Below are positions 6,369 through 51,920 of a stretch of DNA of 64,000 bases, in pieces (the stretch's first letter is position 1; each line of letters opens with the position of its first letter). The stretch is from a virus. The translations under genes were made by a program, and so were the position numbers. The DNA lies in IMG/VR virus record IMGVR_UViG_3300011005_000151; one strand, given 5' to 3'. The notes under the pieces were generated by a model. That model made no database searches and was not told the origin of the DNA. It saw nothing but the letters and a program-made list of their open reading frames with translations.

Positions 6369-6554
6369 AGTTCCCCCTTCCGGAGGATTTTTACATGGCT
6401 AATGGTTAAGGTTTGCGGCGATGCTCCGGCATACGTCTATTATAGCACGGGAAAATTGGTCTTGTAAAGGACGACCCCGTCGTGGAGTTGCACCTCCACG
6501 ACGGGGTCTAGCCTAACATAAAATCTAACTTTATGAAAGGATGAAACAATTATA

Positions 6555-7175
6555 ATGGGAGCTAACAAGAAAGTCAAGGGTACTCGCAAGTCTGGTATTC
6601 GCCCTCAGCACGCGCCGCTCATCGACCGGGTCATCGCCGGTACTGACGAGAAGGCGGATGAGTTTCTGCGCACCCTGGATGGGTACGACACCATTCCCGG
6701 CGTGAACGCCATGACGTTCAGCATGATTGCCAACTTCGCCAAAAAGCTGTCTGGCCGCGCTGATATCCAGGAGAAGGTTATTCGCCAGAGCGCCCACTAT
6801 TGCGGGGTTCGCCACAATGGGCTTTACGGCCAGTGGGAGCCGAGGCACCGCAACACGGTGAATATCCGCAAGGCCATGGAAAAGGCCGGCCTGGATGTTA
6901 CCCTCCCGCAAGGAATGGCGCTGTGCGGGGTAAGTCCGCAGAACAGCCGTCTGAACCTGTACTCTCCCAAGTACATCCTGGCGATCCTCATGTCTAATCC
7001 CTACGTTCGCCGGGTAATCGGCGAGAGGGTTTCTGGTCTGTATCCGTTCGTTCCCGAGCCCGCGCCCGAGCCCGAGGTCACCGCGACTCTCGCTCCCGGG
7101 TTTATGCAGCTCATCCAGGCGTATGTGCAGGAGGCTGTGAAGGAAGCCATGCAGCAGATGAGCGTGGTAAATTAA
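6555..7175 (+). CDS. hypothetical protein
   Basis: 206-aa ORF with RBS. Followed by the TTTAT-loop hairpin and tRNA-Met. Confidence 0.5.
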   Translation: MGANKKVKGTRKSGIRPQHAPLIDRVIAGTDEKADEFLRTLDGYDTIPGVNAMTFSMIANFAKKLSGRADIQEKVIRQSAHYCGVRHNGLYGQWEPRHRNTVNIRKAMEKAGLDVTLPQGMALCGVSPQNSRLNLYSPKYILAILMSNPYVRRVIGERVSGLYPFVPEPAPEPEVTATLAPGFMQLIQAYVQEAVKEAMQQMSVVN

Positions 7176-7191
7176 TTTGTCCATCCTTTCT

Positions 7192-7217
7192 GGGGCGGGT
7201 TTATCCCGCCCTGTTTT
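7192..7217 (+). terminator. GGGGCGGG-tttat-CCCGCCC hairpin followed by TGTTTT
   Basis: Member of the conserved TTTAT-loop hairpin family. Lies directly 5' of tRNA-Met. Confidence 0.55.
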
Positions 7218-7219
7218 AT

Positions 7220-7295
7220 GGCCGTATAGTTCAGCTGGTAGAACAGCCGGCTCATAACCGGTAAGTCGCGGGTTCGAGTCCTGTTGCGGCCACCA
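7220..7295 (+). tRNA. tRNA-Met (anticodon CAT)
   Basis: Cloverleaf folded by hand. Acceptor GGCCGTA/TGCGGCC, anticodon loop CTCATAA, T-arm GGTTCGAGTCC, CCA encoded. Confidence 0.85.
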
Positions 7296-7319
7296 TGATT
7301 TTTAACAGGAGGGATCGAT

Positions 7320-9681: not shown

Positions 9682-9817
9682 GTTATCACGCTCGCTGCTA
9701 TGCGAAAACCTCGAACCATATGCCTTCTACGTTTTTGACGTTTCGCAGATGTAAAACTTAATAAAAGCGTCGCAACAAATTGCTATTGGAATACAGCTAA
9801 TACTCTATAAAGCGATT

Positions 9818-9893
9818 TACAGATTAGTCAAATGGATATTGACGCTGGCTAGATAGAGCCGGAAGTCTGGGTTCGAATCCCAGATCTGCAAAT
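9818..9893 (+). tRNA. tRNA-like element or pseudo-tRNA with an 8-nt anticodon loop and no CCA
   Basis: Hand-folded. Acceptor has one mismatch. D-stem GTCA/TGAC. Anticodon stem CTGGC/GCCGG with loop TAGATAGA. T-arm CTGGGTTCGAATCCCAG. Confidence 0.3.
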
Positions 9894-12856: not shown

Positions 12857-12942
12857 GCCGGTGTGACGGAATCGGAAGACGTACCAGACTTAAAATCTGC
12901 TGAGCTTTGCTCGTGAGGGTTCAAATCCCTTCGCCGGCACCA
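12857..12942 (+). tRNA. tRNA-Leu (anticodon TAA), type II with long variable arm
   Basis: Acceptor GCCGGTG/CGCCGGC, anticodon loop CTTAAAA, long variable arm, T-arm GGGTTCAAATCCC, CCA encoded. D and anticodon stems are imperfect. Confidence 0.7.
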
Positions 12943-12971
12943 TTAGAGATTACGAAAAGGAGGTTCGGGTT

Positions 12972-14462
12972 TTGTTCAACACAGTTATCAGACAGACGCC
13001 ATTCACCACCGAGGGTGCGGATGAGTTTTTCCCGAACATAACGGGAGGCGTAAGAAACGGCGACGTATCGTGGCTTGCAACGGTTCGCGCCGTCATCGGT
13101 CATCGGAAACCGGCGGATGAAAGCATCAATATCCGGTTCGGTGAATCGCGGTTCACAGCGGAAGATATCTCCGGGTTTTCTCCGGAGAGGGTCATGCAGT
13201 CCTGCCTCTGCAGTTACCAAATGGCGAGCGAGAACACGCTTTACATCCATGGTTTGGTATGCCTGAAGCGTGACGACAACAATGCGAATTTCGAGGTTTT
13301 CCAGAATCATTTCCTGTCTGCGTACCCCGGATGGTATCAGATGGAGCCGGTCACCGCGATGTTCCGCAGAACGTTCAACATCCTGTGCTTCGTCAACGCG
13401 GAGCTTCACAGCACGATCCTGATTATCGCCAGTCTGAATAATAAGTATCTGCACTATGCTCAGGCCGGTGTCACGGCGTATTTCCCCTGGTATTACAAGC
13501 GCGGCACGGATACTGTCTCGCAGGAGGAGCTTGACCTTCTTCAGTCTTTCAGCAAAAGGGAACCGGATGATTTTTACGCGGCTATCCGCAAGCTGGCGGA
13601 GGGGCACGATTTCGAGTCGGCGAGGATCCGAAGGCTTCTCAGCGGGTTTGAGAGCCAGTATGAGAAGGAGCAACTCTCCAGCTTGCAACTGGAAATCGAG
13701 AGATACCATAACGAGATCCGGGAATTGAATGACAGGATCGCGGCGTATTACCAGACCATCAATGAGAGAAGTATCACAGCTCTTGGTCTGGAAGCGAAGA
13801 TCGCCCAGGGAGGCGAGGACTCCGAGATCATGAACTACGTTCTTCAGAACAAGGAAATCGATCTTGTCAGTGTCGATGAAGACCGCATGAAGTTTATCGT
13901 TCGTACTCATCTGGCGTGGTGGGACGAGGATATGGCGCGGCGGTATATCGAAAATCACGATGGTTTCGTGTATTCGTTCCTGACAGAGCTGTCTGCGGAG
14001 CAGATGGAGAAGTTGATGAAGGCAGTTTTCCTGGATCAGAAGATCAAGGTTCGGTTCTGCGCGGCTTACGAGTTCCGCATCAGCGGGAATGTCCGCGCAA
14101 CAGGCGGGTATGACTTTGGCGGAGAGTATAACACCTACATGCCAAATCCCCATATCGACCAGTACAGCTGCATGGGCGGTTATGAGCGGAAAATCAACCG
14201 TTTCCTGGAGTCTCGTGATTATATCGGGGCTTTGGAACAGACCTGTGCGTCTGCCAGAAGCCTGAACTGGGGCGACAGCACGGTTATGCGCCAGTTCTTC
14301 CGGACGGTGTGTCACTACGGTGATAATCGCGTGAATAACAAGGCGTTTGAGCTTCCCGACGGCACCGTCGTTGACCCGAAGGGTGCGGTCGAGTGGCTGG
14401 AAAAGGAGGAAGCCGCAGGTGAGTCATCGGAAACGCAGGAAGGAGCGACGGAAAATGTCTAA
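12972..14462 (+). CDS. 496-aa protein of unknown function, first gene of the JAB/E1 operon. The C-terminal region has a YMPNPHIDQYSC motif reminiscent of the E2 HPN-Cys signature
   Basis: AAAGGAGG RBS with TTG start. Its stop overlaps the JAB start (ATGTCTAA). The antisense ORF 12921..14315 is judged spurious. Confidence 0.6.
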   Translation: MFNTVIRQTPFTTEGADEFFPNITGGVRNGDVSWLATVRAVIGHRKPADESINIRFGESRFTAEDISGFSPERVMQSCLCSYQMASENTLYIHGLVCLKRDDNNANFEVFQNHFLSAYPGWYQMEPVTAMFRRTFNILCFVNAELHSTILIIASLNNKYLHYAQAGVTAYFPWYYKRGTDTVSQEELDLLQSFSKREPDDFYAAIRKLAEGHDFESARIRRLLSGFESQYEKEQLSSLQLEIERYHNEIRELNDRIAAYYQTINERSITALGLEAKIAQGGEDSEIMNYVLQNKEIDLVSVDEDRMKFIVRTHLAWWDEDMARRYIENHDGFVYSFLTELSAEQMEKLMKAVFLDQKIKVRFCAAYEFRISGNVRATGGYDFGGEYNTYMPNPHIDQYSCMGGYERKINRFLESRDYIGALEQTCASARSLNWGDSTVMRQFFRTVCHYGDNRVNNKAFELPDGTVVDPKGAVEWLEKEEAAGESSETQEGATENV

Positions 14463-15399
14463 GATCATTCGTTTGACGCCAGATCTGATTAATCAGGCAA
14501 GGCAGGAATTCGAGGAAGCCTTGACGAACGGCAAGTTCGCCGACGGGAAAATCGAGTTTAAGAAAACCTTCAGCCACGTCGACCGCAAGGCCACAGTGGT
14601 TTTCTCGGAAAAGGCGTGGATCAAGCAGGATATGCTGGTATCCAAGTTCCCGAAGGAGATCGCCTGGCATGGTCTTGCGTATCGCGGCGAGGACGATACA
14701 TATATCATCGAGGATATCATGGTTTATCCGCAGGTCGTCACCGGCGGCGATGTGGAAACCGACCAGGTCGAGTACCAGACCTGGCTTTACGCCCACGATG
14801 ACAAGACGTTTGCCAGCATCCGGTATCAGGGGCACAGCCATGTGACCATGGGTGTTACGCCGTCCGCCGTGGACCGAAGATGGTATCAGGAGATCATCGA
14901 CCAGCTCGGTGAGGATATGTTTTATATCTTCATGATTTGGAACAAGCGCGGGGAAAAGACCATCATGATTTACGACATGCTGAAGAACTGCCTGTTCGAG
15001 ACGGCGGATGTGGATGTGAAGGTCGCGCCCGGCGAGCTTGGGCTTTTGGAATTCCTGTCCGATGCCAAGGACAAAGTAAAGGAAAAGGCTCCGGCATACA
15101 ACTACGGCAACTACGGCGGTTACGGCACTGGGTATAAACCGCAGACACAAACCACGCCGGCACAGCCGCAGGCCAATAAAACAGCTCCTGCTACGACCAC
15201 GGGGGCGACGCCTACTACCAAGGAGACGAAGCCGGAATCCGAGACAAAGGCGACGAGCCCAGCCCCGGCGCTTCCGTCCGGAACAAAGCCGAGAATCGGT
15301 GCAGGATGGTGCGGTCGCCGGTATCTCGACGACTACGGTTACGAGGACGAGGACGAGGACGATCCTTACGACTACTACTATCACAGGGGAGGTAAATGA
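14455..15399 (+). CDS. JAB/MPN (JAMM) metalloprotease-domain protein with a Tyr/Gly-rich low-complexity C-terminal tail
   Basis: HSHVTMGVTPSAVD matches HxHx7Sx2D exactly, with an upstream Glu. GGAAGGAG RBS. Translationally coupled to both neighbours. Confidence 0.75.
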   Translation: MSKIIRLTPDLINQARQEFEEALTNGKFADGKIEFKKTFSHVDRKATVVFSEKAWIKQDMLVSKFPKEIAWHGLAYRGEDDTYIIEDIMVYPQVVTGGDVETDQVEYQTWLYAHDDKTFASIRYQGHSHVTMGVTPSAVDRRWYQEIIDQLGEDMFYIFMIWNKRGEKTIMIYDMLKNCLFETADVDVKVAPGELGLLEFLSDAKDKVKEKAPAYNYGNYGGYGTGYKPQTQTTPAQPQANKTAPATTTGATPTTKETKPESETKATSPAPALPSGTKPRIGAGWCGRRYLDDYGYEDEDEDDPYDYYYHRGGK

Positions 15400-16070
15400 T
15401 GGATCTTTCCAAGAGTCTTGAGTATTTCAACCCCGATGAGGTCCGCGACCGTGTCCATATCATTGGATGCGGTTCGGTCGGGTCTACCGTGGCGGAAAAT
15501 CTTGTCCGCTGCGGTGTGACGAAGATCACGCTTTGGGATTTCGATTATGTCGAGCCCCATAATATCGCCAACCAGATGTTCCGCCGTCAGGATATCGGGA
15601 AACTCAAGGTTGAGGCTTTGGCTGATATCCTCCGGGAAATCAACGACGAGGTTGACGAGGATCTCATCCTTGAGCCGAAGGGGTGGCATGGCAAACTGCT
15701 CTCCGGGCACATCTTCCTGTGTGTGGACAGCATCGAGCTTCGGCGGGAAATCGTGGAAAAGCACTACGATTCCATGTTCGTAAAAGCGATGTTTGATTTC
15801 CGCACCCGGCTGGAGGATGCACAGCATTACGCCTGTGACTGGTCGGATGAGTCGGCCAAGGAAAATTTCCTCAAGACCATGCAGTTCAGTCATGAGGAAG
15901 CCAAAGAGGAAACTCCGGTTTCTGCCTGCAATGTAACGCTGGGTGTCTGCCAGACTGTGCGGATCATCTGCGGGTATGGCACGGCGAACTTCATGAACTT
16001 CATCAACGGTCGCGGTCTGAAAAAGATCGTGCTCGCCGATGCGTTCCATATGGTTTTGGACGCATTCTGA
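15396..16070 (+). CDS. minimal E1-like (ThiF/MoeB family) adenylyltransferase-domain protein
   Basis: IIGCGSVGS Rossmann loop, DFDYVEPHNIANQ, and a CNVTLGV ThiF-like motif. ATGA overlap with the JAB gene. Confidence 0.75.
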   Translation: MMDLSKSLEYFNPDEVRDRVHIIGCGSVGSTVAENLVRCGVTKITLWDFDYVEPHNIANQMFRRQDIGKLKVEALADILREINDEVDEDLILEPKGWHGKLLSGHIFLCVDSIELRREIVEKHYDSMFVKAMFDFRTRLEDAQHYACDWSDESAKENFLKTMQFSHEEAKEETPVSACNVTLGVCQTVRIICGYGTANFMNFINGRGLKKIVLADAFHMVLDAF

Positions 16071-32329: not shown

Positions 32330-32928
32330 GCAACGTCAGGCTTTCGCCTGGCAACAGCAAAATGGGTTCTATCCCCAGCGTTTCCCTACCCGCTCTTAAA
32401 ACCTGCCGGGTGTGTGGCTGCAACAAGGAGTGCTATGCACTCAAGCTTGAGCGGCTGCGCAAGAACGTAAGAGCGGCGTATCAGGCCAATCTTGACCTGC
32501 TGAATTCCGATAGTGAAACCTACTGGCGCGAAGTAAAAGGCGCTATTATGATGGCACGGTATTTCAGATTCCATGTCTCCGGTGATATCCCTGACGCAGA
32601 ATACTTCGAGAATATGGTCAGAGTGGCGGCAGATTGCCCGCACTGTGAAATCTTGTGCTTTACCAAAAAGTTTAATATAATAAATGAGTGGATTGCAAAA
32701 GGCAATCAACTGCCATCCAATCTACATATCATCTTCAGCGGCTGGGTCGGGCTTGAGATGGAAAATCCGTATTCTCTCCCGGAAGCTCATGTGCGGTATC
32801 GCAGTGGCGATACAACCGCCAGACCGGATGCTATCCCATGCGGCGGGAATTGCACCAAGTGCGCCGTTACGAACGGCGGGTGCTGGACACTGAAGAACGG
32901 TCAGCAGGTAGTTTTCGACAAACATTAA
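32326..32928 (+). CDS. Cys-rich phage protein (possibly Gp37/Gp68-like)
   Basis: N-terminal MSNVRLSPGNSKMG...CRVCGCNKEC pattern. Attribution made from memory only. Confidence 0.4.
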   Translation: MSNVRLSPGNSKMGSIPSVSLPALKTCRVCGCNKECYALKLERLRKNVRAAYQANLDLLNSDSETYWREVKGAIMMARYFRFHVSGDIPDAEYFENMVRVAADCPHCEILCFTKKFNIINEWIAKGNQLPSNLHIIFSGWVGLEMENPYSLPEAHVRYRSGDTTARPDAIPCGGNCTKCAVTNGGCWTLKNGQQVVFDKH

Positions 32929-32941
32929 CAGGAGGAAGGCC

Positions 32942-33547
32942 ATGAGCTTTATTATCGCGTTCTTTGGAATCATATATATTGTTTTTCGTCTCGTTGATGA
33001 ACACGCACAGAAGAGAAGCGTTGATAAGCGTGTCGCGACTGCGGCTAAAGAGGACGCTGATAAGATGAGCGGATGGCTGAATCGTGTTACCGACCCGTGT
33101 CTGGAGTCTGAGATCACAGACGCACTGTATTCGTACTACCATCCAAAGCACGCGCAGTATCAACAGGAACTGGATGAAACGATCCCTACGATCCCTGGTT
33201 GGGATAGAGCGACAGTCGAGGATCTGGTTTATGATAACAAGGTCCGCATCCTTATGGCAAAGCGCGGCAAGCTTATGAAGAAAGACGCCGAGAACGGGAT
33301 CAAGGTAAATACTTTCGTTATTAAGACCGGTATGTCTCCGGCGGAGCACAGGCGCAGGAACATGCGGCAGAAATACCTGTGCCAATGGATCAATGGTCAG
33401 CTCAATGCTCATGGCATCCATTACAGAATGGGCTTCCGGAAGGACTGCGTCAACAATGTGTATGATTTTGAAGACCTTGATATGAGTGAGTCCAATACAC
33501 TCATTGGGTATGTCCTCTGGGAACCGATGGCGCGAACCAGATGGTAA
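32942..33547 (+). CDS. hypothetical membrane-anchored protein
   Basis: N-terminal transmembrane segment. Confidence 0.45.
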   Translation: MSFIIAFFGIIYIVFRLVDEHAQKRSVDKRVATAAKEDADKMSGWLNRVTDPCLESEITDALYSYYHPKHAQYQQELDETIPTIPGWDRATVEDLVYDNKVRILMAKRGKLMKKDAENGIKVNTFVIKTGMSPAEHRRRNMRQKYLCQWINGQLNAHGIHYRMGFRKDCVNNVYDFEDLDMSESNTLIGYVLWEPMARTRW

Positions 33548-33560
33548 TTTAAAATAAGGA

Positions 33561-33827
33561 GTGACAATGGTAAAGGTAAAGAAGGTCGTACAGATCCAGG
33601 ACGGCGACAAGGTCAGGATCAACAAGGCGAGGATCCTTGCCCGCCCTGATTACGACAGGCTGACACCGCTGTACAGGCAGTTTGTCGAGGAAAATTCCGG
33701 CACGGTTTTCACAGCGAAGACAATCGTAAAACCTGACAAATACGAAAGTGGTATCTTCGCTTTTGTAGAATCCCCGGCATGGTATTTCTGGGATGGAGAT
33801 TTGATTAAGGTCGGTGAGGAAGAGTAG
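33561..33827 (+). CDS. hypothetical protein
   Basis: AAGGAG RBS. Confidence 0.45.
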   Translation: MTMVKVKKVVQIQDGDKVRINKARILARPDYDRLTPLYRQFVEENSGTVFTAKTIVKPDKYESGIFAFVESPAWYFWDGDLIKVGEEE

Positions 33828-44381: not shown

Positions 44382-44410
44382 CGCCAGACAGAAAACTTAC
44401 ACATCTTAGT

Positions 44411-45294
44411 TTGTTCTCTGGCATTTAGTCGGCGGTTTGGATTTGGCGGCAGAAGCTGCCGGGTTTGAAACAGTCGGGCAGGTTGAATGGGCAGATTACC
44501 AAACGAAGATACTGGAGAGACACTGGCCTGACGTGCCGCGATGGAGAGATATACATACACTTACGGGAGATGAATTCTATAACCGAACAGGATTACGAAC
44601 AGTCGATGTCATCTCAGGTGGATTTCCATGCCAGCCGTTTTCCCAGGCCGGGAAGCGGGGAGGCAAGGACGATGACCGTTACCTCTGGCCGGAAATGCTT
44701 AGAGTCATACGGGAAATCAAGCCCACTTGGGTCATTGGTGAGAATGTGCCTGGAATCGTCAATCTGGCACTCGACACGGTGTTGGCTGACCTGGAAGCAG
44801 AAGGTTACGAAGTCCAATGCTTTATTATACCGGCTTGCGGCGTCGACGCCCCGCACAAAAGAGAGCGAGTCGCTATTGTGGCCCACGCCATCGGTAGGAG
44901 CGGCGCTGTGCGGTGGAACGGGGAATTTCAAGACGCTTCAGAAAATGGCGGAGAAGGGGTTAATTACAGAACAGGAGAGGCGGCAGCTCTCGCAGGGGAA
45001 CGGCGGCAAGACGAACCCGGGTTTATTGGAATGGCTGATGGGCTACGAACAGGAGTTCACGAAGCTGATTCCGACGCCGACTGCGACAGATTACAAGGGC
45101 GGATGCCTGAGCAGGTACTGGGGATCACCCCCCCCCATCTGAACAACGGCAAGCGTGGTTACGACGGCCGGCTGAGAAGCTTTCTCGAACTCACTCCGCT
45201 TGGGAGAATTGGCCCGATGAACCCGGAATACCTAGAGTATCTGATGGGATATCCAATCGGATGGACCGAATTAAGTGTCTCGGGAACGCGGTAG
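44411..45294 (+). pseudogene. dcm: C5 cytosine DNA methyltransferase split across frames, with a C9 homopolymer at 45128-45136
   Basis: Motif I LFSGI ends at TAG. A 5-nt shift leads to GGLDLA...PCQ, ENV and motif VIII in the 44437 frame. NPxxLEWLMGY appears in two frames. The C9 tract sits at the frame junction. Confidence 0.6.
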
Positions 45295-45376
45295 TTCCGC
45301 AACAGTTTTATCCGTTTTTCGCGGCGATAGCTGCGATAGAAAACGGTTGATAATCCAATAATATATCTGTGAAAGG

Positions 45377-48300
45377 GGGTGGAAGATGGCCGACAATTAT
45401 ATTCCGTATCACATACATAGTGATTACAGTTTGCTTGATAGCTGTACAAAATTTGAGGAGTATGTCGACCTCGCTGTTCAGAACGGGCAACGTGCGATTG
45501 CCTCGACTGAACATGGTTAGGTAAACCACTTGGATGGATCTCGAAAAAGATGTATTGCGACAAGATGGGTATTAAGTTTATCCATGGCGTTGAGATATAT
45601 CTTACGGAATCTCTTGCAGAGAAAGTCCGAGACAATTACCACACGATACTTCTGGCAAGGAACTGGGATGGGGTTTTAGAGCTTAACAGGCTCGTTTCAA
45701 TGTCCTGCGATGACTACCATTTCTACTATACGAACAGGTTGTCGTTCGATGAGTTCTTGGGCATCTCGGACAACATCATTACTACGAGCGCGTGTCTGGC
45801 ATCTCCACTAAACAAACTCCCAGAAGACAATCCGTATTATTTAGAGCTTGCCAATAAATATGATTTCTTTGAAATCCAGGCTCACAACCATCCAGAGCAA
45901 GCTGCGTTCAATCAAAAACTATATCAACTGTCTATCGAACTCGGGAAGCCGTTGATAGCGGGGACAGATACACATAGTGCGTCGCCTTATAAAGCAGAGT
46001 GCAGATCTATATTGTTGAAGGCGAAGCGCAAGAATCGCAATGGTTACGTCGATGAGGATTCTTTCGACCTTACATATAAAACATATGACGAGCTTACTGA
46101 AATGTTTAGAGTGCAGAATGCATTACCAGAAGAAGTCTACATGGAGGCCATCGCGAACACCAACTTATTGGACGAGCTTACCGAGGATTTTCAGCTAGAC
46201 ACATCAATCAAGTACCCAATCCTGTATGGATCTCGTGAAGCAGACTCGGAGAAATTTACCGAGACTGTTGAGCGGAAATTCAAAGAGAAGCTTGAGTCGG
46301 GGGTTATTCCCCCAGAGCAGGAAACTGCGTTCCGACAGGCCATCGATGAAGAGATGCGGGTTTTCCGTAAACTCAAGATGGACGGGTTTATGCTCAGTAT
46401 GAGTGAGCTTATCTGCTGGTGTAAAGATCATGATATGGCGATCGGCACCGCCCGTGGATCTGTTGGCGGCTCCAGAGTCGCATATGTCACAGATATTATC
46501 GACCTTAACCCGGAGCAATGGCACACCGTATTCTCCCGCTTTTGTAATGAGGACAGACAAGAAATCGGGGACATAGATATAGACTGCGTTGAGTCTGACA
46601 GACCGGCGATTTTCCAACATATCATTGGAAGATTCGGTGCAGATAAGACAGCCAGAGTGGCCGCTTACGGGACGGTAAAATCCAAGGGCGTAATTGACGA
46701 AGTTGGGCGTGCTTTGTCGAAAAAATGGTACGAAAATCACCCAAATTGCGACGAAAATGACGAAAATCCGTGGTCTTTGGGCAATATTTCGCGTATAAAA
46801 TCGGAATTTGATTCGGACCCCGAAAAAACGCGCAAAGACTACCCAGAACTGTTCTATTACTTTGACGGTCTGATTGATACACGGGTTTCGCAGTCTGTGC
46901 ATCCAGCGGGCATGATAATCTCCCCGATCACATTGGTCGATAATTACGGCGTGTTCAATAAAGAAGGGGAGAACTGCCTGATGATGGATATGGAAGAGGC
47001 TCACGAAGTCGGCCTCGCCAAGTATGACTTCCTGATTCTTAAAACAGTCGAAGTTATCAGAGATACTTGCAGGTATATTGGCATCCCATATCCAAAAACA
47101 TACGAGATAGACTGGGACGACCCGGATGTTTGGGATGACATGTGCTCTAACCTCACCACGATCTTCCAGTTTGAAAGTTCGTTCGCTGCGGAAAGTTTTA
47201 AGCGATTCCGTCCAAGAAACATTTTTGAAATGTCGCTTGTGACAGCGTGTATTAGACCGTCTGGCGCTTCGTACCGCGATGAGTTGCTGGGACGGATACC
47301 ACATCATAACCCGTCGAAGCTCATTGATGATTTGCTTTCAGATAACAATGGCTATCTTGTATATCAATGCGACGTTATAAAATTCTTGATGCAAATCTGC
47401 GGGCTTTCAGGAAGCGAGGCTGATAACGTACGCCGAGCAATCGCACGAAAAGATACTGACAGATTACAAAGCGTCTTGCCTGGGATCTTGTCCGGATATT
47501 GTGATAAGAGTGACCAACCTAAAGAAGTAGCCGAGCAAGAAGCAAAGGAATTCCTCAAGATCATTGAAGACGCTTCCTCGTATATGTTCGGACTCAACCA
47601 TAGCATAGCCTATTGTCTTCTCGGGTATTTATGTGCGTACTTCCGACATTATTACCCGCTCGAATACCTCACAGCATTTTTAAACAAGGCTGCGAATGAG
47701 GATGATATCCAAAACGGTACAGCGTATGCAAACCGTGTAGGGATCCTCGTTACGATGCCAAAGTGGAGTATCTCTAAAGGCGATTATTTCTTCGACAAAG
47801 AGCGAAGCACAATTGCCAAAGGGGTCACATCCATCAAGTATATGAGCCAACAGATTGCGGACGAGATGTACAATCTCGCACACGAACGGCATTATAAATC
47901 ATTTATTGACTTGTTGATAGACCTGGACGCCAAAACAAGCTTAAACACACGGCAGTTGGATATCCTCATTAAAGTAGATTTCTTCTCAGACTTCGGGAAC
48001 CAGAGGGAGTTGCTTCGTATCACAGAGTTATTTTACGACATGTTTAAAAAGGGCGAGGCGAAGAAACTTCGCAAGGATGCCATCGACGGGACCCCGTTTG
48101 AGGGAGTTATCAAGAAGTATTCTGTCGGCACGACAAAATCAGGCGGCGCGGCGAAGAGTTATACGCTATTGGATGTGCCGGCGATTATGAGAGAGTGTGA
48201 ACAACTGATTTTACGGGCCGATATGTCCGACTTGGATGATATAACGAAAGTGCGAAACTTCTATGACGCAATGGGGTATTTCGGTTACACATCCGGGAAG

Positions 48301-49772: not shown

Positions 49773-50455
49773 GTAACCAGTTCCAAGATTTAACCGGAGA
49801 GCGCTTCACTAGATGGCTAGTTGTCAGCAGGGGCCCAAATGATAAAGATGGGAGCACGAACTGGAACTGCGTATGTGATTGTGGTACGCGAAGGATGGTT
49901 AGCGGTCATGCATTAAGGAGCGGAAGGTCAAAAAGCTGCGGGTGCCTGGCTAGAGAGATCGTCGGACAAAATGCAACGAAACATGGGGCACTTCGCAGTA
50001 ATGCAAAGGATTCGGATAATAAACTATACCGTGTGTGGCAGTCAATGCGTAGCAGGTGTAAAACGCAAAGTAATACTGCGTATAAATGGTATGGCGGCAA
50101 AGGGGTAAAAGTCTGTGCTGAATGGGATAATGACTTTGAGAGCTTCTTAGAATGGTCATATAAAAACGGATACAAACCTGGACTATCTATTGATAGAATC
50201 AGATGTGATGGTGATTACTGCCCTGATAATTGTAGGTGGGTAGGGAGGGCTATCCAAGACAATAATAGAACTGACAACCATTACATCGAATATAACGGAG
50301 AAACGCATACAATGACAGAATGGGCTAGAATTACTGGCATCAATGTGAATACCTTGTCTGGAAGAATCAATCGGTATGGATGGCCCATTAAAGATGCGTT
50401 AACTATTGAAGTGTGGGGAGCATATCATAGTGGCGACAAAAAAGAAGAGAATTGA
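49769..50455 (+). CDS. HNH homing endonuclease (HNH_3-like, with zinc ribbon and C-terminal HTH)
   Basis: LSIDRIRCDGDY...NCRWV motifs. N-terminal C-rich region. Confidence 0.55.
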   Translation: MSNQFQDLTGERFTRWLVVSRGPNDKDGSTNWNCVCDCGTRRMVSGHALRSGRSKSCGCLAREIVGQNATKHGALRSNAKDSDNKLYRVWQSMRSRCKTQSNTAYKWYGGKGVKVCAEWDNDFESFLEWSYKNGYKPGLSIDRIRCDGDYCPDNCRWVGRAIQDNNRTDNHYIEYNGETHTMTEWARITGINVNTLSGRINRYGWPIKDALTIEVWGAYHSGDKKEEN

Positions 50456-50474
50456 TTTCACAAAAGACCCGCCT

Positions 50475-51134
50475 ATGAAAATTGCAGATTGCCAATTCTA
50501 TGGATATACACTTGATCCGGAACAATTAGCATTTGCAGAAGCGATATATAGTAACGATATAGATATCGTGTTCTGTAATTCGCCGGCAGGTACTGGTAAA
50601 GATCTGGTTGCAATTGGCACAGCAAATATTATGGTGCAATTTGGAATGTATGACGAAATCATCTATATTGTATCACCATACGGGGAGAGAAAACAGGGGT
50701 ACCTCCCAGGAGATATACAAAGTAAGTCTGTTGTGTATTATGAGCCACTATTCCAAGCTCTAGTAGCGTGTGGTATTAACCCGAATACAAGCGTAAATAT
50801 GGACGGCATTGGTGTGAATAATATGGGCGGATATATCACTTGCATAACAGACACATATCTGAGAGGTACTACCTTAAATAATGCAATCATCATTCTGGAT
50901 GAGTCTGAGAATTTTACGACACCACAGTTGAAAAAGACACTTACCAGAGTAGGTTCAAACACAAAGGTTATTGTGATAGGCCACGATCAACAGTGCGACC
51001 TCGATAATCCAAGTTCTAGTGGTTTTGTAAAATATATTAATCATTTTGCGCCAATGAAGCGTGCAGCAATTTGCGCCCTAACAACCAACCATCGTGGATG
51101 GATAAGCCAACACGCCGATACGCTCACAGAATGA
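50475..51134 (+). CDS. phoH: PhoH-like P-loop ATPase
   Basis: SPAGTGKD Walker A. ILDESENFT...VIVIGHDQQCD. Confidence 0.65.
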   Translation: MKIADCQFYGYTLDPEQLAFAEAIYSNDIDIVFCNSPAGTGKDLVAIGTANIMVQFGMYDEIIYIVSPYGERKQGYLPGDIQSKSVVYYEPLFQALVACGINPNTSVNMDGIGVNNMGGYITCITDTYLRGTTLNNAIIILDESENFTTPQLKKTLTRVGSNTKVIVIGHDQQCDLDNPSSSGFVKYINHFAPMKRAAICALTTNHRGWISQHADTLTE

Positions 51135-51920
51135 GATATCAGGGCGGTAAAACTAAAACCGCTTTTGGCATCGCCAAAGCCATCAAAGCGGCAATAGAGG
51201 AGGATAGATGCAGTACCAAGGAGGTAAGCATAGGGTCGCAACGCACATCGCGAGTAGAATCGCCGGCCTTAGTGGGGGGGGGTGTTGGTAAGCTTGTTCT
51301 GTGGGGCTTGCTCAGTCGAGTCGGCTCTCGCAAACAGTTTTGACTTCGTTATCTGTAACGACATTAACACCTATTTGATTGAATTGTTAAGGGCTGTCCA
51401 AGGCGGGTTTATCCCGCCAGAGACAGTCACGAGAGAAGAGTATAAATACATTCGGGAACATCCAGATGAAAATAAGGCGTTGACAGCGTTTTGTGGATTT
51501 GGATGCAGCTTCGGCGGGAAGTGGTTCGGCGGATATGCCAATGACAACAACGGCAGGAATTATGCACGGGAAGCAAAGGAATCGTTGCTAAAGGATATGG
51601 CATCACTAAGAGACGCGACATTCTCGTGTATGGATTACAGAGATGTCAGTCTCCCGGAGGGGTGTGTGATTTATGCGGATCCGCCGTATGCCGGCACGAC
51701 ACAATATCGCAATGGGGTTTTCGATACTCGGGCTTTTTGGGACTACGCAATAAAGACGAGCCAGAATCACATGATGTTTATCTCAGAACAGACAGCACCT
51801 GACGACTTCGTAGTGGTCTGGGAGAAAGGTGTCAAACGAACTCTGGATTTTAATAAAGAAAACCAACCACAGGCGACAGAAAAACTATTTATACACAAAA
51901 AATATATGCACAATCTTTGA
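51071..51920 (+). CDS. dam: Dam-like N6-adenine DNA methyltransferase interrupted at a G9 homopolymer (51274-51282); candidate phase-variable gene
   Basis: Frame A has MRYQGGK. Frame B has SLFCGACSVE...NDIN and DPPY. A G8 tract would join the two frames. Confidence 0.65.

Follow-up and report, generated by a model that had tools for sequence, protein, structure and literature searches.

A homopolymeric tract in a D12-class DNA methyltransferase gene of a Clostridia-type phage as a probable three-state contingency locus with N-terminal modules in alternative reading frames

In the licA gene (lic1) of Haemophilus influenzae, initiation codons are present in two of the three reading frames upstream of CAAT repeats, and the number of repeats picks the start codon (PMC2212159). 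Contingency loci in phages are only now gaining recognition. A 2025 preprint that presents itself as the first to ascribe contingency loci to phages covers poly-G loci in the receptor-binding proteins of Campylobacter Fletchervirus, and in the methylase of Bordetella phage BPP-1 as well as contingency loci of T2/T4; according to this preprint the poly-G tract of the BPP-1 methylase was noted and not studied further (bioRxiv 10.1101/2025.10.21.683753). Here, a stretch of viral DNA of 64,000 nucleotides (IMG/VR record IMGVR_UViG_3300011005_000151), referred to as the window throughout, was analysed with regard to a DNA methyltransferase gene whose reading frame is split by a run of nine guanines (G9). 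The gene is probably, with a rough probability of 0.7, a conserved simple-sequence-repeat contingency locus that works as a three-state translational switch and is found here in its OFF phase.

The tract is an uninterrupted G9 homopolymer (GGGGGGGGG) at positions 51274-51282 of the plus strand, between two start codons and the catalytic body of the enzyme. The initial annotation had located it there and had assigned the N-terminal motif MRYQGGK to one frame and motif I together with DPPY to another, and both statements hold: MRYQGGK is encoded in frame 2, motif I and DPPY in frame 0. A third frame had been missed, in which a second start codon opens a second copy of the N-terminal element. Start codons are present in two of the three frames ahead of the tract, with ATG 51131 in frame 2 and ATG 51208 in frame 1, the body being in frame 0. 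The features of the locus are the following:

50430-51134, plus strand: PhoH-like ATPase gene, directly 5′ of the locus (match to phrog_170, E=2e-46).
51131-51205, plus strand: module 1 in frame 2, consisting of start 1, MRYQGGK and a helix (TAFGIAKAIKAAIEE), as read from sequence and translation.
51197-51203, plus strand: Shine-Dalgarno-like sequence GAGGAGG, 4 nucleotides (nt) 5′ of start 2 and inside the 3′ end of the module-1 coding sequence.
51208-51273, plus strand: module 2 in frame 1, consisting of start 2 (ATG 51208), MQYQGGK and a helix (HRVATHIASRIAGLS), followed by GGG of the tract, as read from sequence and translation.
51274-51282, plus strand: G9 homopolymer, the putative switch, whose length modulo 3 puts start 1, start 2 or neither into the frame of the body.
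51285-51920, plus strand: catalytic body of a predicted D12-class N6-adenine DNA methyltransferase in frame 0 (PF02086, 212 codons, stop 51918-51920).

The MRYQGGK codons occupy 51131-51151, and the ATG of start 1 shares the sequence ATGA (51131-51134) with the TGA stop of the PhoH-like gene, an overlap that suggests translational coupling. At G9 the open reading frame (ORF) of module 1 ends at a stop at 51343 after 70 amino acids (aa), and the ORF of start 2, with the peptide MQYQGGKHRVATHIASRIAGLSGGG, halts at the stop 51289-51291, two codons past the tract (27 aa). In frame 0, the body carries SLFCGACSVE (motif I, 51291-51320), NDIN (51357-51368) and DPPY (51678-51689). It contains no internal lesion or stop, and all 43 invariant columns of the homologue alignment (A1) are kept.

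In order to compare the possible products, the tract was edited in silico from G7 to G11 and the translations were examined. With G10 or G7, start 2 comes into frame with the body (237 or 236 aa, respectively), with G8 or G11 start 1 does so (262 or 263 aa), and with G9 the body is in frame with neither start. The G10 product scores 65.2 bits against PF02086 (gathering cut-off 22), the match being contiguous from profile position 1 and colinear over positions 1-63, and it aligns without gaps with relatives of approximately 60% identity whose residues at the tract site are S-GGG, T-GG or I-GGGG. Because of this colinearity with the profile and with the relatives, the 237-aa form can be regarded as the canonical enzyme. 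The G8 product scores 54.9 bits against the same cut-off, its best matched stretch beginning only at residue 51. The earlier statement that a G8 tract would give one continuous ORF was reproduced by the edit (262 aa), but as a repair it has to be amended, the apparent canonical ON lengths being G10 and G7 and G8 yielding a second, longer isoform.

Structure predictions with AlphaFold gave a mean predicted local distance difference test score (pLDDT) of 89.5 and a predicted template modelling score (pTM) of 0.87 for the short form, and values of 82.8 and 0.82 for the long form. In the latter, residues 11-20 of the module-1 helix have a pLDDT of 92, while the read-through linker (approximately residues 28-50), which is module 2 read out of frame over about 23 residues, is predicted to be disordered with a pLDDT of about 50 at residues 31-50. 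The best matches of a Foldseek search in the PDB were EcoDam, T4 Dam and DpnM, with a probability of 1.0 and a template modelling (TM) score of about 0.5. From the PF02086 match, DPPY, motif I, the two YQGGK copies and the modelled fold, the protein is predicted to be a D12-class, Dam-fold N6-adenine DNA methyltransferase; the positions of DPPY, motif I and Y-x-G-G-K are invariant or nearly so in alignment A1. Since the identity to the solved T4 Dam and EcoDam is only 16-22% and the TM score about 0.5, specificity for GATC should not be assumed, and of the label Dam given in the initial annotation only class and fold are retained.

The proposed switch would operate as follows. Two tandem copies of the essential N-terminal element (x-Y-x-G-G-K followed by one helix) are present, with separate starts and in different frames. 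Slipped-strand mispairing during DNA replication would alter the tract by one G, and the tract length modulo 3 would set the state. At G10 or G7, start 2, which is preceded by the strong Shine-Dalgarno sequence, would be in frame and the canonical 237-aa enzyme would be made. At G8 or G11, start 1, apparently coupled to phoH, would give the 262-aa enzyme, in which module 1 serves as N-terminal element and the module-2 reading forms a disordered loop. At G9, no start would be in frame and the gene would be OFF, so that the sequenced genome represents the OFF phase. The repeat lies 3′ of a nearly invariant element, and each usable frame would therefore need its own copy of it; with one copy of the motif for each usable frame, a complete enzyme would result in two of the three possible tract states. 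We infer that the tract switches in this phage and that both isoforms would be active.

The conservation of this arrangement was assessed in a survey of related loci, for which the best 80 of 351 IMG/VR hits and the best 80 of 228 GTDB hits, ranked by tblastn score, were fetched. Of these, 66 loci belong to the clade with the motif SLFCG and form 40 lineages at 90% identity. The 66 loci come from phages and prophages of Clostridia, and the closest are found in gut and rumen genomes and metagenome-assembled genomes (MAGs) of Ruminococcus, Oscillospiraceae, Lachnospiraceae and other Clostridia. The two-module layout is present in 37 of the 66 loci, representing 22 lineages. At the site of the G9 tract, where the N-terminal helix is linked to strand 1, a simple repeat occurs in 36 of these 37 two-module loci compared with 10 of the 29 single-module loci (Fisher p=2e-8, the loci being phylogenetically non-independent). 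Depending on the lineage, the repeat is G6-G11, (AG)7-17, which translates as RERERE, or (AT)9-10, which gives IYIYIY. Additionally, the linker of one homologue (P0058) contains an RQTD repeat that looks tetranucleotide-encoded. Poly-G, (AG)n, (AT)n and RQTD-type repeats are all stop-free in every frame.

All three states of the proposed switch occur naturally among the relatives. The 37 two-module loci comprise 15 with the short form in frame (short-ON), 4 with the long form in frame (long-ON), 3 with both modules in frame and 15 that are OFF, frequencies that are biased because the loci were ranked by tblastn score. In the lineages with both modules in frame, the two modules are separated by an additional tract. 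Such a second, inter-module poly-G tract was observed in some lineages (L024, L094, L099, L101, L107, L114, L100 and L106) and allows the tandem MQYMGGK..NGG..MRYQGGK. Moreover, tract lengths differ within five lineages between loci with identical flanks and 95-99% DNA identity, namely G7/G8, G7/G8/G9, G9/G11, G8/G9 and G10/G11. The best 120 database homologues include 91 short forms, 19 long forms, 6 proteins in which both modules are in frame and 5 truncated ones. The long forms in the database consist of one module and a long nonsense linker, and one of them (P0046) is the long form of a gene whose short form is also on record (P0002).

The variety of these repeats bears on the question of whether the frames are joined at the level of expression instead of DNA. 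RNA polymerase slippage or ribosomal frameshifting on G9 could yield one or both isoforms from a fixed genotype, and homopolymers of at least nine nucleotides can cause transcriptional slippage, mainly A/T runs. The tract is 9 nt long in two assemblies of the phage (see below), and two methylase tracts of the window require the same +1 correction, as would be expected under such programmed recoding. A fixed slippery site would then be expected in the relatives, but these use (AG)n, (AT)n and many lengths, often directly in frame, and G/C runs are poor sites for transcriptional slippage. A conserved out-of-frame layout with a fixed slippery sequence across homologues, as programmed slippage implies, is not found in the relatives. 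Recoding as the main mechanism is therefore considered very improbable; it could add leakiness on top of switching at the DNA level.

The upstream module was analysed for signs of constraint. Start codons in two frames upstream of the repeat are found in the same arrangement in the 22 lineages, and the residues M1, Y3, G5, G6 and K7 of the N-terminal element are nearly invariant in the family (alignment A1). The Shine-Dalgarno sequence of module 2 (GGAGGT or GAGGAGG) is nested in the end of the module-1 helix coding region across the relatives, where GGAGGT stands at the same position as the GAGGAGG of the window. In all 22 lineage representatives the frame of start 1 is stop-free across module 2 up to the repeat, and in 21 of the 22 the third frame contains at least one stop. 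The ratio of nonsynonymous to synonymous polymorphism (pN/pS) over the 22 lineages is 0.31 for module 1 (codons 2-17) and 0.34 for module 2. By this measure, purifying selection acts on module 1 as strongly as on module 2, and the open read-through frame shows selection on the long form as well.

These data are relevant to the possibility that the upstream MRYQGGK segment is merely left over from recombination or module swapping and that the tract is an ordinary ON/OFF switch with one start. The mosaic nature of phage genomes, the 23-residue nonsense linker of the long form and the rarity of long-ON, the least frequent single-start state (4 of 37), would all fit a leftover. It would not be expected, however, that the two-module layout persists in 22 lineages with a module-1 pN/pS of 0.31, that the read-through frame is open in 22 of 22 cases against stops in 21 of 22 control frames, that the presence of two modules is tightly associated with the presence of the repeat, and that 19 of the 120 top homologues are long forms. 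A leftover segment is thus regarded as highly unlikely.

Residue 2 of the N-terminal element distinguishes two kinds of modules. At this position, Arg in one module is paired with Gln in the other in 19 of the 22 lineages, in either order (window: R in module 1, Q in module 2). The database short forms mostly have R at residue 2 (77 of 91), and the long forms mostly begin with the Q type (15 of 19). In a HMMER alignment, residues 5-170 of the query correspond to residues 12-193 of EcoDam, and by ungapped extension residue 2 falls at EcoDam K9. EcoDam uses K9 and Y138 to recognise the first GATC base pair, and conservation of this contact within the Dam family is noted to be lacking (PMC4417163). 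As residue 2 is R or Q and aligns to K9, specificity or activity might not be the same in the two ON isoforms. It is conceivable, though doubtful, that the tract selects between two functionally different N-terminal DNA-contact modules, giving specificity or activity A, B, or OFF; the R/Q pattern could in part stem from common descent of the duplication. If this reading were true, the phage would have an epigenetic switch with three states, which together with a repeat-controlled C5 methylase would provide a repertoire of virion methylation patterns.

The reality of the G9 tract was examined with a second assembly. The contig NODE_92 of ENA ERZ3810914 (L001; 49.9 kb, assembled with SPAdes) matches the window with 99.97% identity over 20,053 nt and shares its G9, as well as a C9 run that is present in the window at 45128-45136. 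The two sequences are not mutual copies, since a 150-bp indel and a few clustered changes near C9 separate them. The indel (window 41869/41870, L001 434-583) is in frame, corresponds to 50 codons and lies near the 3′ end of a DnaG-primase-like gene called in L001 (1-638). The cluster (window 45101-45119, L001 3815-3835) comprises 4 substitutions and G4 versus G6 within 19 bases directly 5′ of C9; apart from the indel, all differences between window and L001 over the 20 kb fall into these 19 bases. L001 reads GGGGGGATCACCCCCCCCC at this site, which could form a hairpin.

A homopolymer error of sequencing or assembly, the true tract being G10 (or G8) and the gene intact, would be compatible with the low coverage of the ENA contig (cov 5.87), with the fact that G9 and C9 are each exactly one base short of the canonical ON length, and with the error-prone nature of long G/C runs. 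However, two assemblies that differ elsewhere (150-bp indel, G4 versus G6, 4 substitutions) concur on G9 and C9, and the remaining 20 kb are free of indel noise. The OFF state of the relatives is offset from the short-ON frame in the direction opposite to that of the window, so that no one-directional undercall of runs is at work. An error is consequently judged unlikely. As regards chance, only three G/C runs of at least 6 nt are present in the window (C6, C9 at 45128-45136 and G9). Two of them are nine long, against an expectation of 0.35 such runs per window, a number reached in 6 of 100 shuffles; both are located inside DNA methyltransferase genes, at sites where relatives also carry repeats. 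The initial annotation had left phase variation and assembly error side by side; the former is backed by the conserved repeat site, the three states and the length differences among relatives, and the latter is disfavoured by the G9 of the second contig.

Further copies of the phage were searched for in several ways. Exact look-ups returned the ENA contig only and no further copy with another tract length. No near-identical match was found among INPHARED phages, a pattern of the exact flanks with a variable G run gave no match in IMG/VR or JGI metagenomes, and locus searches with single proteins yielded no close relative of the phage.

The second run of nine lies within another methyltransferase gene:

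44396-45350 (approximate), plus strand: C5 cytosine methyltransferase gene (PF00145) with a C9 tract at 45128-45136.

At C9 the main frame of this gene misses motif X (LGNAVVP, 45279-45299), which C10 or C7 would rejoin. As motif X lies out of the main frame, C9 is read as an OFF state. In relatives of this methylase (L162-L194), G7-G12 or (AG)8-15 is found at the C9 site, and each of the three possible frames of motif X relative to motif IV is represented. Judged from these comparisons, the C5 methylase is a candidate for a second contingency locus of the same phage. That C9 joins a WPTP-containing frame of the gene was ruled out, since homologues run from motif IV to motif X in one frame. 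This WPTP frame is an observation in its own right: the C5 methylase family (L162-L241, L242) has a long conserved nested +1 ORF with WPTP/YPTP repeats (window approximately 44465-45142, plus strand, frame 2), which overlaps the coding region of the catalytic domain and has no Pfam match. In Paenibacillus phage Leyra (L242) the nested region is annotated as two overlapping CDS (coding sequences) named DNA-cytosine methyltransferase, LEYRA_61 and LEYRA_62.

Two genes of the window are interrupted by 5-nt inserts with an in-frame TAG. In motif I of the C5 methylase, TAGTC (44426-44430) stands between LSLFSGI and GGLDL, and in the PHP domain of PolIII-alpha, TAGGT (approximately 45518-45522) stands between STEHG and KPLGW. 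Both inserts are also present in the ENA contig, the homologues being uninterrupted with the same spacing, and they may reflect either decay or a bypass. Reassignment of stop codons as an explanation for the broken genes was tested and found no support. A +5 translational hop (GGU to GGU over UAG) fits the PolIII-alpha insert, but the insert in the C5 methylase has no matching landing codon, and the hop was rejected.

In view of these lesions, the adenine methyltransferase could be a pseudogene of a decaying prophage, i.e. a once phase-variable methylase that is permanently off and whose tract is a relic. The 5-nt inserts break PolIII-alpha and motif I of the C5 methylase in both assemblies, C9 likewise puts the C5 methylase out of frame, and no ON form is on record. 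Against this stand the 212-codon body, which is stop-free with all 43 family-invariant residues, and the intact starts, Shine-Dalgarno sequence and uninterrupted tract, which mean that a single slip would restore the gene; moreover, OFF states are common among the relatives (15 of 37). A pseudogene is accordingly thought improbable.

Several points weigh against the preferred reading of the gene as a switchable contingency locus in its OFF phase. Both assemblies of the phage have G9 and none has another length, the coverage of L001 being low (cov 5.87, approximately 6x k-mer coverage). Only truncated proteins of the phage (211, 212 and 181 aa) and no ON form are on record, and as these are all truncated calls, every available copy is OFF-frame. 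The other frame-breaking lesions of the same element, the two 5-nt inserts described above, perhaps indicate a defective prophage with a frozen OFF state. Among the relatives, part of the tract variation could be MAG assembly noise, and the tblastn ranking biases the state frequencies.

The phage is a temperate one of the Clostridia type, and the gene is located in its module for replication and nucleotide metabolism. The neighbours are genes for an HNH endonuclease, PhoH, a small zinc-ribbon-like ORF, a deoxynucleoside monophosphate (dNMP) kinase, a nucleotidase, NrdD/G and dUTPase; PolIII-alpha and ClpP are encoded upstream and Xis and an integrase downstream. No restriction-enzyme partner is evident beside the methyltransferase gene in the annotated neighbourhood, and the methyltransferase is an orphan. 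The purpose of the contingency locus would likely be bet-hedging, some hosts restricting unmethylated and others methylated DNA, and/or an epigenetic switch carried by the prophage. Host genes can be reprogrammed by Dam-like enzymes of prophages, as with PamA, which is cited in PMC13076061.

Elsewhere in the window, six tRNA genes (Met, Leu, Gln, Pro and Thr, including one with a four-base anticodon) are located on the plus strand between 7.2 and 22.3 kb. The tRNA with the four-base anticodon (gata) was called by ARAGORN at 9817-9892 (plus strand). In the left 35 kb, long ORFs of 200-520 codons are open on both strands at 12894-14459, 14287-15426, 6534-7301 and 32870-33649. Recoding of stop codons was considered for the fragmented ORF map of this part and does not explain it.

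The locus may serve as a model for three questions: how phages hedge between hosts restricting unmethylated and methylated DNA, whether host DNA is subjected to phase-variable methylation by prophages, and whether swapping of an N-terminal module changes the specificity of a methyltransferase. In addition, gene callers split or truncate such genes, and calls of frameshifted methylases in MAGs may reflect biology, not error.

Compared with known systems, the phage locus resembles licA in that the repeat is located in the 5′ part of the ORF and starts are present in two of the three frames. In licA, however, the alternative starts add only a dispensable leader ahead of the tetranucleotide repeat, whereas in the phage the tract lies 3′ of an essential, near-invariant motif and the whole motif with its helix is duplicated per frame; furthermore, the element is phage-borne and its product is a DNA methyltransferase. 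The phasevarions (Type III ModA and ModM; Type IIG cj0031) share with it a repeat in a methyltransferase ORF and slipped-strand ON/OFF switching (PMC4525171, PMC4889913, PMC13076061). They are chromosomal parts of restriction-modification systems of Proteobacteria with one start and two states, in contrast to the orphan D12-class enzyme of Clostridia phages and prophages with its two starts and three proposed states. The loci of Fletchervirus, BPP-1 and T2/T4 are likewise hypermutable homopolymers of phages that make frameshift sub-populations, but they have neither duplicated start modules in alternative frames nor a family-wide hot spot with varied repeats. T4 Dam, EcoDam and DpnM, the best sequence and fold matches, have PF02086, DPPY, the N-terminal aromatic-x-G-G/N-K element and an FCG-type motif I in common with the phage enzyme, while a repeat tract is absent from the solved enzymes, each of which has one N-terminus only. 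The dam gene of prophage CJIE1 was also checked and is not relevant. In the literature, searched non-exhaustively and with REBASE outside the search, neither a two-start, repeat-switched methylase of a phage or prophage nor a family-wide hot spot was found. Repeat-switched methylases, multi-start switches and phage poly-G tracts are known already, and what appears to be new, in that we found no description of it, is the duplication of N-terminal modules in alternative frames.

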